Positions 21,585 through 44,133 of a DNA stretch of 48,646 nucleotides are shown piece after piece. Numbering within the stretch: position 1 is the first letter of the stretch; every line of letters starts with the position of its first letter. The notes beneath the pieces were generated by a model. The model saw only the letters and a list, made by a program, of their open reading frames with translations. It was not told the origin of the DNA and searched no databases. The DNA is from a phage, in the sequence record NC_136441.1, one strand, 5' to 3'. The position numbers were made by a program, and so were the translations under genes.

Positions 21585-21866
21585 ATGGAAAAGCAATTCA
21601 ACGAGCATGAAATCAAAGAAGTTCAGGATCACGTAGAAAAAGTCACCTCCGCACTTGCATTTACACAGCGTGAATTTTTAAAGGTGATTGATCCAAGTGA
21701 ATCGCTTGAAACTATGGCATACGTTCGCAAGGTTGCACATGCATTTGATAATGTAATTCTCACAATCTTTCAGCATGAAGATAATGAGCAATATAAAAAC
21801 ATGTTGCACCAAGCTAGTGAGGTAATGATCCAGAATTTGATTGATTACCATAATGAAGGTAAATAA
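21585..21866 (+). CDS. hypothetical protein
   Basis: 93 aa from ATG 21585, SD AGAGAGGA. Confidence 0.5.
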   Translation: MEKQFNEHEIKEVQDHVEKVTSALAFTQREFLKVIDPSESLETMAYVRKVAHAFDNVILTIFQHEDNEQYKNMLHQASEVMIQNLIDYHNEGK

Positions 21867-21922
21867 ACTCATTAATTAAATTGGCGGTGAAAGCCGCCTA
21901 ACCTATCAGCGGAGTGAATTAG

Positions 21923-23084: not shown

Positions 23085-25253
23085 CTTAGTAAGCTGAACA
23101 AGCATTGCTTGCATTTCAGCAATTGCGGCTTTCATTTCTGCGATCTCGTTTTTCAACTCTTTAATTTCCTCCTGTTGAGCCTGAATAGTTTTATTCTGCT
23201 TATCTGAATCATCAATCATTTCATTGATCGCGTTAACCAAAAGAGCAGTAACACCGCCATAGCTAACACCTAAATATTCTGAATCTGAAATCTTGTAAAC
23301 CGCTTCCGGTAAAACAGTTTGCACGTCTTGAGCTATTACACCAGCCTCCTCCGAATAGAAAGAATATTCATCTTCATCAAGATTGTTGCGCTTAAAATAA
23401 GTGTAACCTTTTATTGATTTCACTTTTTCTTTAGCGCTTTCAATCTCTTTTAGGTTTGCTTTCAGGCGAATATCGGAAGTGTTAACCCATTGCACAGCAG
23501 ACGCATAACCAGCATCGTTAAACCCATAAACAGCGCCCCTTACATTAAAATGAGCCTCGCAACCTCCAGCGCCATATCTGGCAACATCTATACCAAAAGC
23601 CCAATCACCACCCCACCTTACAACCTTAACAACGTTAACGGCTACATCATCGCTTGGAAGTTCAACAAGCATACCAGCGGCGCGATCACGCCATGCAGTA
23701 AAAGCACCACCCTCAACATTTCCACCTATAAAGCAATTAGCGCCACCGCGTCTAACTCCTTCAACATAAGCGAATCTAGCATCTTCTGGAGCAAGTGATT
23801 GAATAGTTCTGTATGCAATATTGCCACTTTTTGTAAATGCAAACATCACTTGACTATCAGCAATTGCTTGAAGAATCCCATCTCCATTTTGCCTAAATCC
23901 AGTGTCTGTATCACCAATTACTAACGCATTACTTCCAAGCGCATTACCAATACCCCTACCGATAACTATTGAATTGTAATTTATCGCGTTACCGCTTTCA
24001 TCAAATTGATAATAGTTTGTATCACCTCCTTCCCTAGTGACTTGTATTGTTGTTTTTGCTAATCCACCTTGAATTTCGTTGTAAATTCTTGAGTATGAAA
24101 GCTGTACATCTTCTGGACTTTTGTTTATTAAATAAAGAATTCCAGATTTTGCAGAGTTTTTTTCTGTTAGTCTTATTCCTCTAAAAACAGGTATATCAGC
24201 CTCACCAATGCCAAAATTATTCCTTGCTTGGCTTACGTTTGCTGCACCTGTGCCGCCAGCACCAACAGAAAGAGCGGATGTGCTGTTATCGCTATTTCTT
24301 GCAACTCGCCACTCGCCGTTGTTTGCGATCCGTAATTCATAAGTCCATGCAGGGTTACGAAATGAGTTATAATCACCTGGATTTTGACCCTTAACTGAAT
24401 TAACAGCCTCAACTTTCAGCGCCTCCCTTGCTAAATCTTTATTAGCAAGATCATTAAGATTCTGATCCTTATGCAGAAGGTTTTCAGGGTTAACTTGTTG
24501 TGCCCATTGGCGAGCTTCATCACGCGCAGTTTCAGCGCCTTGTTTAGCGTTTCCGGCTGCAACGTTTGATTGTTCAGCGGCAAGTTGTGATTCCTTTGCT
24601 GCATCGCGAGCATTAACAGCCTCGTTTTTAATTGATCCAATTTCAGAAACGGCGCTATCTTTTATTTGTTGCGTCTGCGTTTTTATTGCGTCAGTGTCTG
24701 CCTTAATCTGATTGGTTTCATTGACGGCAGCATCCTTAATCTGTTGAGTCTCAGATACAGCAGCATCCTTAATCTGTTGAGTCTCAGATACAGCAGAATC
24801 CTTAATCTGTTGCGTTTCATTTTTTAGTTGCTCAGTTGCCGCTTTGTCGTTTGCTACCTGTTGAGCATCAGCATTAACCTTGTTAACTAAATCTTGCAAT
24901 GTTTTCAGATCGAAGTTTTTAAAGAATTCAATTGCTTCCTCAATTACCGTTTCTTTACTTTGGTAATAACGCAGCGTTTCCGCTACATCTTGCGCCATTC
25001 CATCGACAGTTAGCGAGTCATTCAACAGGATCACATAATTTCCGTTTGCTACTTGCTCGCCGTCAGTCTGGATCGCTTTCATTTCCGTGTCGCTTACAAT
25101 ATCGCTGATAACCGCCAGCTTTAAAGGCGTGGTTAAAAAAACGATTGTTGCGCCAGTGCGAATAAGAGAAAGCGGCTCACGCCATTTTGTGCCAGTACCA
25201 GTGATAACGCCTTGTGCGTCCATTGCAGCCGTACCAGTGCGATATAAAGCCAT
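23082..25253 (-). CDS. tail fiber with C-terminal intramolecular chaperone (peptidase S74-like) domain
   Basis: 723 aa; C-terminal [15 protein letters not shown] autoproteolysis-type motif and coiled coil; internal 11-aa repeats. Confidence 0.75.
24695..24826 (-). repeat. in-frame 33-bp tandem coding repeats within tail fiber gene (about 4 copies)
   Basis: CAGCATCCTTAATCTGTTGAGTCTCAGATACAG repeated at 24728..24760 and 24761..24793 with degenerate flanking copies; encodes [11 protein letters not shown] repeats. Confidence 0.8.
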
Positions 25254-40187: not shown

Positions 40188-40231
40188 ACTATATCGCAAC
40201 CCCTGAATCGAGTTTTAACAAAAAGTGCTAT
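40188..40231 (-). promoter_or_regulatory. motif promoter (ATAGCACTTTTTGTTAAAAC + 22 nt + TATAGT)
   Basis: minus strand; palindromic TCGAT...ATCGA and GGTT/AACC around the -10. Confidence 0.5.
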
Positions 40232-40599: not shown

Positions 40600-40607
40600 C
40601 ATGCAGT

Positions 40608-40635
40608 AGACCGATTGGTCTAGACCGTTTGGTCT
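40608..40635. repeat. two tandem 14-bp near-palindromes AGACCGATTGGTCT / AGACCGTTTGGTCT
   Basis: direct reading; operator- or iteron-like. Confidence 0.8.
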
Positions 40636-40775
40636 AATGAACGCATCGTTCAACGTATCGAACGCATTCACGATCACGTTATACGATCACAATATGATCA
40701 TGTTGATGATTGATGTGTGAGTTGATGTGATTGAAATTGATTTGATTTGATTAGATTTGAGTAGTGAGTGAGTAG
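40636..40775. repeat. iteron-like cluster of short direct repeats (GAACGCAT x2, ACGATCAC x2, GATTGA/GATTTGA series, GTGAG x2)
   Basis: direct reading of non-coding control region. Confidence 0.7.
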
Positions 40776-41549: not shown

Positions 41550-41993
41550 ATGGAACAAATGACAAGTAAAGAGTTTTGCGAAAAATTGCGTGAAGCAGCA
41601 AGAGCGGCGGCAAAAGGTGAGGTGATCAAGTTGCCAGTTGCCTACATAACAATGAACGTCCAGGCAGAGGACGCAAAGAAGCTAAATTCCTCATACATTC
41701 GCACGATCATGAATCGTGTTCCAGAAGTAAAAGAGGTTGGATCTGTAAGCGTAAAGAAAAAGACAAGCGATGACGGCGCGGAATATTACGAGATCGCAAT
41801 CAACCGTGACACAAAGCGCCGCATCGTAACAACTAATGACCTTCCGGCAATCAAAGAGCATGAGCGCGAAAAACTGGTCGAAAAGATTATGCGTATATCG
41901 CCGGACTTCTCACACCTGGACGATGAAAAGGCACTTGTTGCAATGCGAGCGGTTGCCACGTTCAAAGATCTGATTAAGGAGATCTCAAAGTGA
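41550..41993 (+). CDS. hypothetical early protein
   Basis: 147 aa, SD AGAGGTGA. Confidence 0.5.
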   Translation: MEQMTSKEFCEKLREAARAAAKGEVIKLPVAYITMNVQAEDAKKLNSSYIRTIMNRVPEVKEVGSVSVKKKTSDDGAEYYEIAINRDTKRRIVTTNDLPAIKEHEREKLVEKIMRISPDFSHLDDEKALVAMRAVATFKDLIKEISK

Positions 41994-42097
41994 AAGCATT
42001 CGCCCTTGTCGCTGCAATGTGGTGCATGGTTATTGGTCATCCTGGCGTTACGCTGGCGTTGTGCGTATTTATTTTGTTGGGGGTGTTTGATGAATAA
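41990..42097 (+). CDS. hypothetical 35-aa hydrophobic peptide (GTG start)
   Basis: GTGA overlap with upstream stop, SD AAGGAG 8 nt upstream; single TM-like segment. Confidence 0.25.
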   Translation: MKAFALVAAMWCMVIGHPGVTLALCVFILLGVFDE

Positions 42098-42203
42098 GAA
42101 ACTTTTAGATCATGCCGTGGTGTTCTTTATCGCTGCTGCTGGATTTTCGCTGTTGTCAATTGCTTTTTCAATCCTTGCTTTTGCCGTGTCAATGCTGAAA
42201 TGA
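42090..42203 (+). CDS. hypothetical 37-aa membrane peptide
   Basis: ATGA overlap with preceding peptide ORF; MNKKLLDHAVVFFIAAAGFSLLSIAFSILAFAVSMLK. Confidence 0.3.
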   Translation: MNKKLLDHAVVFFIAAAGFSLLSIAFSILAFAVSMLK

Positions 42204-42225
42204 CGGATTACATCCTGATTGCTAA

Positions 42226-42269
42226 ATAGCACTTTTTGTTAAAACTCGATTGGGGTAGTTTGGCATAAT
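42226..42269 (+). promoter_or_regulatory. motif promoter (ATAGCACTTTTTGTTAAAAC + 22 nt + CATAAT)
   Basis: long hairpin TCGATTGGGGTA/TACCCCATCGA with -10 in loop; upstream of 42308. Confidence 0.55.
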
Positions 42270-42307
42270 TACCCCATCGAAACGAAACGCACTAACAGGA
42301 GAACATC

Positions 42308-42496
42308 ATGAAATTATTAGGAAAACTTAACGCTAGCTCTTTGGTAATTGGTGACTTGATTGAGGTGGCTGGATCTTTATCGGTGGTGACTAGCGTTTTT
42401 GTTGATGGGGTAAAGGTGATAATTGAGACCGACAAGCTGCACCCATTCGAGCTTTGCTGTCTTGATGAAATTAAAGTTTATTCATCATTTAACTAA
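42308..42496 (+). CDS. hypothetical protein
   Basis: 62 aa, SD AGGAGAA. Confidence 0.45.
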   Translation: MKLLGKLNASSLVIGDLIEVAGSLSVVTSVFVDGVKVIIETDKLHPFELCCLDEIKVYSSFN

Positions 42497-42501
42497 CTGG
42501 A

Positions 42502-42545
42502 AAAGCACGAATTGCTAAAAAATAATCCTGGGCTTGCGGTATAGT
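42502..42545 (+). promoter_or_regulatory. motif promoter, variant (AAAGCACGAATTGCTAAAAA + 22 nt + TATAGT)
   Basis: hairpin GGGCTT/AAGCCC around -10; upstream of 42578. Confidence 0.5.
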
Positions 42546-42577
42546 AAGCCCATACCAAACAACGAGAGGATCACAAA

Positions 42578-42977
42578 ATGAAATTAGCACGTAACGCGGT
42601 TTATGGCTTACACCTTAATAAAGGCGGCAAAGGCTCAACTTATGCACACCTTTTTCATGTTAATGAGCGCGGTCAAATTGATATTGCAATGTATGTTGAC
42701 AAACTGGTTAAAGGTTGTGAGTCCAACAAGTTCAGACCAGATCTGATTGAATACGATCACACACACAGTCACGACCACTGGTTAGGTGGTTAAAGGTTGT
42801 GAGTCCAACAAGTTCAGACCAGATCTGATTGAATACGATCACACACACAGTCACGACCACTGGTTAGGTGGTTATAAATTTACAATGCTGGATAGCCATG
42901 TTATTGACACAAGAAAATTAACGAATCGTGACTATAGGCGCATGGCTCGAAAAATCCTGAGGCAGAAAGCGCAATAG
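42578..42977 (+). pseudogene. early gene split by a perfect 82-bp tandem duplication (fragments 42578..42793 and 42786..42977)
   Basis: two ORFs share a 28-aa overlap (VKGCESNKFRPDLIEYDHTHSHDHWLGG); removing one 82-bp copy restores a single 106-codon ORF. Confidence 0.55.
42705..42868 (+). repeat. perfect 82-bp tandem duplication (2 copies) flanked by TGGTTA microhomology
   Basis: 42705..42786 is identical to 42787..42868; next 6 nt (42869..42874) repeat the unit start. Confidence 0.9.
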
Positions 42978-43017
42978 CACGAAATGTTAAGCGGCCATGT
43001 GTGCTGATTGGTACAAT
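42974..43017 (+). promoter_or_regulatory. motif promoter, variant (ATAGCACGAAATGTTAAG + 22 nt + TACAAT)
   Basis: motif overlaps TAG stop; upstream of small ORF 43050. Confidence 0.45.
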
Positions 43018-43049
43018 GACCGCATCAACCAATAGGAGAGGATAGAAAA

Positions 43050-43157
43050 ATGTCAAAAGAATCAATTAAGCAGTTTCTGAAATACGGCTCTATGATTGTG
43101 CTCGCTACCGTTGTGCTGGCTGGCATAGCTTACAGTGTCATTGAATTTGTGGGGTAA
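43050..43157 (+). CDS. hypothetical 35-aa membrane peptide
   Basis: SD GGAGAGGA; MSKESIKQFLKYGSMIVLATVVLAGIAYSVIEFVG. Confidence 0.35.
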   Translation: MSKESIKQFLKYGSMIVLATVVLAGIAYSVIEFVG

Positions 43158-43160
43158 TGG

Positions 43161-43724
43161 ATGTTTAAGATCGAATTGTGGGGCAAGGAATACACTAATC
43201 ACTACGTTGCAACAAAACAGCGTTTCGTTATTTTCGACTTGGACGGCACATTGTCAAATGGTGAGCACCGCTTACACCTGTTGCCAACTGTTGACTTGCA
43301 CCTTACTGAAAGCTGGAGTGAGTTTAATCGCGCCGCAAAGGATGATTTACCATTCATGGATAACATATCCGTGTGCAACGCCATGTTTGACGCCGGATAC
43401 CTGGTTATCATCCTAACAGGACGTAGTGATGAAGTTGAGGCAGAAACGCGAGCATGGTTAGCTGAAAACGGCGTTTCTTTCGATTGGCTGATTATGCGCC
43501 GCGCGGAGGACAACCGGAAAGATACCGTGATCAAAGAGGAAGTTTTACGGACTATCGGACTTGATCGCATTGTCGCATGTTGGGATGACTCACCAAACGT
43601 TATTGCACACCTGCGCGGCCTGGGCTTGACTGTTTACCAGGTCATTGACTACGGCGAGCAGTTACACGATCACTTAAAATCTCACGGCGTGGAGGAATTG
43701 AGCGATGACAGCAAAGCTAATTGA
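43161..43724 (+). CDS. HAD-superfamily phosphatase (polynucleotide 3'-phosphatase-like)
   Basis: 187 aa; HAD motif I FDLDGTL, motif II ILTGR, motif IV WDDSPN. Confidence 0.6.
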   Translation: MFKIELWGKEYTNHYVATKQRFVIFDLDGTLSNGEHRLHLLPTVDLHLTESWSEFNRAAKDDLPFMDNISVCNAMFDAGYLVIILTGRSDEVEAETRAWLAENGVSFDWLIMRRAEDNRKDTVIKEEVLRTIGLDRIVACWDDSPNVIAHLRGLGLTVYQVIDYGEQLHDHLKSHGVEELSDDSKAN

Positions 43725-44089: not shown

Positions 44090-44133
44090 ATAGCACTTTT
44101 TGCTAAAACTTGCTAAGGCACATTTGATAAAGT
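44090..44133 (+). promoter_or_regulatory. motif promoter (ATAGCACTTTTTGCTAAAAC + 22 nt + TAAAGT)
   Basis: hairpin GGCACA/TGTGCC; upstream of 44167. Confidence 0.5.

Follow-up and report, generated by a model that had tools for sequence, protein, structure and literature searches.

A very recent microhomology-bounded tandem duplication probably truncates a dispensable early gene of the Tls-like coliphage Stevie_ev116

Results

Two overlapping ORFs occupy the place of one early gene

The window, by which we mean the whole 48,646-nt stretch analysed here (NC_136441.1), carries two short overlapping ORFs on its plus strand whose products are residue-for-residue identical to VUF55138.1 and VUF55146.1 of Escherichia phage Stevie_ev116. 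This phage is a T1-like coliphage belonging to Tlsvirus, Drexlerviridae, and its genome is colinear with that of Citrobacter phage Stevie, with 96.6% identity over the first 25 kb. ORF1 (42578..42793; 71 aa; VUF55138.1) retains the native ATG together with the native Shine-Dalgarno sequence GAGAGGA (42564-42570), and encodes native residues 1-71 before it ends at a TAA. ORF2 (42786..42977; 63 aa; VUF55146.1) opens with GTG and, reading in the native frame, covers the C-terminal portion of the gene. The two ORFs overlap by 8 nt and their frames differ by +1. The GTG of ORF2 is a fortuitous start codon with no Shine-Dalgarno sequence before it, and ORF2 is therefore probably poorly translated or untranslated.

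Both fragments belong to the same family. ORF1 matches positions 1-70 of the phrog_8382 profile (E = 2.7e-26) and ORF2 matches positions 44-107 (E = 3.9e-23), so that jointly they span positions 1-107 of the Tls gp07 / phrog_8382 family. This is the sole match of the gene product in PHROGs, where it is labelled 'unknown function', and no domain match was found in Pfam.

A promoter-like cassette precedes the split gene on the plus strand (42502..42545). It consists of the repeated motif AAAGCACGAATTGCTAA (42502-42518) and a -10-like TATAGT (42540-42545), the latter lying within the inverted repeat GGGCTT..AAGCCC (42530-42551). The next promoter-like cassette, also on the plus strand (42974..43020; ATAGCACGAAATGTTAA ... 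TACAAT), overlaps the TAG stop of the split gene and would serve the downstream 35-aa ORF and pnk. Since these downstream genes have a cassette of their own, polar effects of the truncation are unlikely.

The motif at the head of these cassettes recurs throughout the genome. The pattern ATAGCAC-N5-GYTAA (full form AAATAGCACTTTTTGTTAAAAC) was found at 21 sites where 0.47 would be expected, and every copy points in the direction of the genes around it; the sites include 42226-42242, 42502-42518, 42974-42990, 44090-44106 and, on the minus strand, 40215-40231. About 20 nt downstream of the motif stands a -10-like hexamer (CATAAT, TATAGT or TACAAT), followed by a Shine-Dalgarno sequence and an ATG. 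The hexamer lies in or adjoins a short inverted repeat whose stem sequence varies from copy to copy. In the Stevie record the motif copies are labelled only as 'repeat_region'; to us the motif looks like a phage-specific promoter or regulatory cassette with a variable hairpin.

The region of about 41750-42500, which lies immediately before the split gene, is a mosaic replacement relative to Stevie 42173-43564. Six Stevie early genes, including the gene for an Stp-like peptide, have no nucleotide match in the window, and different small ORFs are found in their place.

A perfect 82-nt tandem duplication splits the gene

The boundary between ORF1 and ORF2 lies within a perfect tandem duplication. 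A repeat search of the genome found 42705-42786 to be contiguous with, and 100% identical to, 42787-42868, and TRF described the array at 42705-42874 as having a period of 82, 2.1 copies, 100% matches and 0 indels. A script comparing the sequence with itself at an offset of 82 showed that the identity is exact over 88 nt (42705-42792 = 42787-42874), that is, over the unit plus TGGTTA. The earlier note, made from the letters alone, had described a perfect 82-bp duplication followed by 6 nt of further repeat, and all three methods reproduced its coordinates to the base. No exact direct repeat elsewhere in the genome comes near these 88 nt, the runner-up being 37 nt, and the chance of finding such a repeat in 48.6 kb is negligible (about 1e9 position pairs x 4^-88).

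Copy 1 (42705..42786, plus strand) codes for native residues ~43-70, including an invariant SHDHW motif. Copy 2 (42787..42868, plus strand) aligns with the single copy of the relatives, and the choice of which copy to call the original is arbitrary. TGGTTA, the first 6 nt of the unit, occurs at 42705-42710, at the junction (42787-42792), and once more directly after copy 2 (42869..42874, plus strand). The copies stand head to tail with no filler or foreign sequence between them; the junction in Stevie_ev116 reads CACTGGTTAGG followed immediately by TGGTTAAAGG, and the single-copy arrangement reads GACAAAC-TGGTTAAAGG...TTAGG-TGGTTATAAA. Each copy also contains a (CA)5 tract (42758..42767 in copy 1 and 42840-42849 in copy 2, plus strand), which is the site of frameshifts in the alleles of other assemblies.

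Because 82 = 27x3+1, reading goes out of frame at the junction, which turns the native TTA GGT GGT TAT into TTA GGT GGT TAA. Deletion of one copy in silico restored a 105-codon ORF plus stop, whose product is 96% identical to Stevie gp69. Thus the split into ORFs 42578..42793 and 42786..42977 (GTG) that the earlier note had read from the sequence was recovered in full, and removing one copy rejoins the gene.

We considered whether a DNA hairpin might bring the two TGGTTA sites together and dropped this idea: the folding energy of the single-copy region is unremarkable (z = +0.71).

Other tandem repeats in the window include a 33-nt repeat at 24701-24819 (3.6 copies, 88% matches), which is in frame (11 aa) and lies inside the minus-strand tail-fibre gene homologous to Stevie gp27. 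A further one is the 14-nt unit TAGACCGATTGGTC at 40607-40636 (2.1 copies), which is non-coding, lies between divergent early gene blocks and adjoins two promoter-like cassettes.

Relatives carry the unit once in an uninterrupted gene

In Stevie, KMB25, Tls and U136B the 82-nt unit is present once, within a gene of 104-108 aa that reads through without a break (Tls gp07, Stevie gp69). Synteny is kept: the 35-aa ORF and pnk follow the gene of the Tls gp07 family. In the three closest relatives (Stevie, KMB25 and Tls) the single-copy sequence reads AAC TGGTTA AAGG at the upstream edge of the unit and GG/AT TGGTTA TAAA at its downstream edge. The flanking TGGTTA microhomology that had been proposed from the window is thus present at both unit edges in single-copy relatives.

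A tblastn search against phages showed the gene in one piece in 38 of the 40 matching GenBank records, and in none of the 40 was the unit present twice. One copy of the unit was also found in four IMG/VR contigs and in 15 protein clusters. Every member of the family alignment (15 sequences) is 103-111 aa long and contains one unit copy. Homologues that naturally hold the repeated segment in frame had been named beforehand as the finding that would speak against a recent duplication; none was found. The single uninterrupted ORF of 103-111 aa, which is the hallmark of the family, is absent in Stevie_ev116 (71 + 63 aa), and by sequence comparison we regard its gene as a disrupted allele of a Tls gp07 / phrog_8382 family member. 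The suggestion that a genuine gene had been interrupted is accordingly borne out for an early gene of 105 aa, which relatives carry unbroken.

The family is small. Sequence and profile searches covering about 5.8 billion proteins found it confined to Drexlerviridae, and a profile search run exhaustively over 1.84 billion representatives gave 15 matches, mostly small phage proteins of ~100 aa; three long matches with multiple stretches in this search look like low-complexity noise.

Two substitutions set both copies apart from Stevie (CCAACAAG and CCAGATC, where Stevie has CCAGCAAG and CCCGATC). Since these substitutions are common to both copies and absent from Stevie, the duplication arose after the two lineages had separated and did not come from elsewhere. 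The exact junction was not found in IMG/VR viral contigs. A degenerate junction pattern gave two genome and five metagenome matches, all of them chance 20-mers without homology to the gene.

With respect to the rest of the genome, 65 of the 89 Stevie genes are full-length and intact in the window, the others being mosaic replacements or end-diverged, and no other frameshifted gene was found among the shared Stevie genes. A second candidate for a disrupted gene, at 21585-21875, was dropped, as its stop merely lies 3 residues earlier and there is no frameshift.

The truncation removes conserved elements of a predicted fold

Pairwise dN/dS for the intact gene ranges from 0.05 to 0.33, values that mark it as genuinely coding and subject to purifying selection. 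In an AlphaFold model made from the 15 family sequences (pLDDT 72, pTM 0.68; moderate confidence), three strands at the N-terminus are followed by a middle of poor prediction quality, where the duplicated stretch lies, then by a strand beta4 (residues 74-78) and a C-terminal helix (residues 88-99). The SHDHW motif is invariant in the 15-sequence alignment. Beyond the truncation point lie beta4, the C-terminal helix and seven invariant residues; because all of these are removed, the 71-aa product is likely to be non-functional, as far as a model of this confidence can indicate. A comparison of the model with the PDB yielded nothing significant (best E = 0.22), and its matches among viral models were uncharacterised Drexlerviridae orthologues only.

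The same gene is broken in other Tls-like phages

Frameshifted alleles of this gene also occur elsewhere. A loss of one CA in the (CA)5 tract was found in Logan contigs of runs SRR25477579 and SRR25477406 (L005 1201-1413; L006 532-744), and a gain of one CA is inferred from the sequence of protein P0013 only. The Salmonella Infantis phages Sephi301i (Chile) and vB_GS156 (Ecuador) have in common a 1-nt deletion (TTTCATG -> TTTATG) at ~codon 26, and their gene is annotated as two hypothetical proteins (L007 601-914, PP503414.1; L008 601-914, PV153712.1). As in Stevie_ev116, the same gene is truncated after about 25-70 residues in genomes that are otherwise intact. The lesions differ in that the others are 1-2 nt slippages at a short repeat or run, whereas that of Stevie_ev116 is an 82-nt slippage between separated hexamers.

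As a baseline, we screened three other genes for breakage among the matches listed (60 records per gene). No split was seen among the 60 listed records each for pnk and for a 120-aa gene. A Stevie gp84-like early gene of 108 aa matched as two tblastn pieces in three different phages among its 60 listed records, namely HCF1 (NC_054897.1/MN545971.1), 2019SD1 (NC_049820.1/MT360681.1) and N5822 (MW032452.1). This suggests that deposited Drexlerviridae genomes contain more small early genes with frameshifts, or else sequencing errors. Together the screens point to small accessory early genes being occasionally lost in this group, reflecting dispensability rather than targeted loss.

Discussion

The faecal virome of a child aged one year yielded Stevie_ev116, and after plaque purification the phage was grown up on MG1655 hsdR::kan or E. 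coli C (Mathieu et al. 2020, PMC6969025). It was sequenced by TruSeq/MiSeq with reads of at least 200 nt kept, and assembled with SPAdes at k = 21, 33, 55, 77, 99 and 127, with contig-end repeats removed by hand before re-orientation (PMC6969025). More recently, the phage was used in a study of the Type VI retron Retron-Vpa2, and its escape mutations fell in exo and in rec, which encodes an ERF-type recombinase, and not in the split gene (2025 preprint).

We consider it highly probable that the locus records a real and very recent tandem duplication, bounded by microhomology, which arose in the Stevie_ev116 lineage or stock and truncates a dispensable early gene. The ancestral single-copy gene would have held two TGGTTA hexamers at a distance of 82 nt. 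As the DNA was replicated or recombined, a 3' end may have extended through the downstream TGGTTA, re-paired with the upstream one and copied the 82 nt a second time, by slipped-strand mispairing or by annealing at the microhomology, possibly assisted by the phage's own exonuclease/ERF-type annealing system. The frameshift at the junction leads to the TAA, so that only residues 1-71 of the 105-aa early protein would be made, and the lesion should be precisely revertible through loss of one copy. The structure has the features expected of such an event: microhomology at both edges in the parental arrangement, and one TGGTTA retained at the junction. Among the three origins put forward in the earlier note, a recent slipped-strand event fits best, given the TGGTTA pair that already existed at the edges. 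The engineered insertion that it also listed finds no support: there is no foreign or other non-phage sequence, both copies are native, and we dropped this option.

Comparable events have been described in phage T4, where the tandem amplifications involving dmd-tifA are bounded by microhomologies of 6-10 bp, with one copy kept per junction (Srikant et al. 2022, PMC9391042). The Stevie_ev116 duplication resembles the T4 rII duplications and the dmd-tifA amplification in being head to tail and without filler, with edge homology in the parent of which one copy is kept at the junction. Moreover, as in T4, the copies are identical because the event is recent, and such duplications are unstable and revertible. 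However, the T4 cases amplify whole genes, over kilobases, and are selected for dosage. In Stevie_ev116 the repeat is 82 nt inside a gene, the outcome is a frameshift and truncation, and selection is not part of our proposal. The lesion belongs to a well-known class of mutation and is not a new mechanism or biological device.

An artefact of assembly or finishing, which the earlier note had likewise raised, is unlikely in our judgement and is disfavoured by most of the evidence, yet it keeps a small share of the probability. The contig of this circularly permuted genome might have both begun and ended inside the gene, with an incompletely trimmed end overlap or a manual join surviving rotation to the terminase start; the zero divergence between the copies is compatible with this, the junction was seen in no second assembly, and the manual trimming of end repeats and the joining of three genomes by hand (Mathieu et al. 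2020, PMC6969025) offer a route to spurious tandem duplications. Once a circular or permuted genome is rotated, an uncollapsed de Bruijn contig-end overlap would likewise leave a perfect tandem duplicate anywhere in the sequence, but its length would equal the k-mer size and its edges would be unrelated to microhomology, neither of which fits Stevie_ev116. A SPAdes end overlap equals k, and neither the period of 82 nor the identity of 88 matches any of the six values used; by our estimate the chance that an arbitrary overlap has 6 nt of extra flanking identity is about 0.2% (7 x 4^-6), and edges that fall exactly on a TGGTTA pair pre-existing in single-copy relatives are the signature of a molecular event. 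Additionally, the largest k, 127, exceeds the repeat and the reads reach at least 200 nt; given how de Bruijn assemblers work, the 170-nt structure with its 88 nt of self-identity should then be unambiguous in the graph and would be assembled only if reads hold the junction. The finishing also appears to have been careful, with no terminal overlap and no second frameshift among the genes shared with Stevie.

If the duplication is real, the truncation might itself have been selected, or might work as a reversible on/off switch, with loss of the gp07-family protein advantageous in hosts where it is sensed by a defence or is costly. In favour of this, four independent frameshifting lesions fall in a 315-nt gene (the 82-nt duplication, -CA, +CA and the 1-nt deletion), and a direct repeat of 82-88 nt is a good substrate for precise deletion in a phage that encodes an exonuclease/ERF annealing pair. 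Targeted recurrent inactivation is weakened, however, because the gp84-like gene is also broken in the baseline screen, and the breakage rate of gp07 is not clearly exceptional beside it; at (CA)5 the tract is short for a contingency locus, the Tls and LL5 alleles lack it, the gene is otherwise under purifying selection, and the Retron-Vpa2 escape mutations of Stevie_ev116 lie in exo and rec. We therefore hold selected inactivation or switching to be quite improbable. The earlier note had offered either an inactivating mutation or a revertible switch; the truncation stands and a switch is mechanistically feasible, but we saw no sign that it is used as one. A more specific version, in which the gp07-family protein is a liability towards the host, for instance as a trigger of abortive infection, and is recurrently or reversibly switched off, the repeat being an off state that exo/ERF can reverse, appears very doubtful to us. 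If it held, this ORFan would be a phage protein sensed by a defence; we know of no host factor for a gp07-family protein. We give barely any credence to a functional split or recoded gene, in which termination-reinitiation at GTGGTTAA or +1 frameshifting in the 8-nt overlap would produce either a pair of fragments that complement each other or one protein of 133 aa in which 27 aa are repeated internally. The ORF1 stop (42791-42793) and the ORF2 GTG (42786) do overlap in a way that permits coupling, and every native residue is covered by ORF1 and ORF2 together. Nevertheless, the GTG lacks a preceding Shine-Dalgarno sequence, 42786-42793 contains none of the known +1 slippery motifs, no relative shares the split arrangement, which is thus not a conserved design, and the split would fall inside a single predicted domain, between beta3 and beta4.

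Taken together, a recent duplication that truncates a dispensable gene remains our preferred reading, and it bears on how this phage is used. The stock is viable on MG1655. Plaques are obtained and experiments are done with the phage on E. coli K-12, a host in which the gene is therefore dispensable. Users of Stevie_ev116 in work on defence systems should note that the deposited genome has a truncated early-gene allele, whose two pieces are entered as separate 'phage proteins' (VUF55138.1 and VUF55146.1), and that single-copy revertants may be present in stocks of the phage. For the family, the finding identifies a conserved Drexlerviridae ORFan as dispensable for growth on E. coli K-12, and the broken allele and its revertant would form a natural allele pair with which the function of the gp07 family may be probed.
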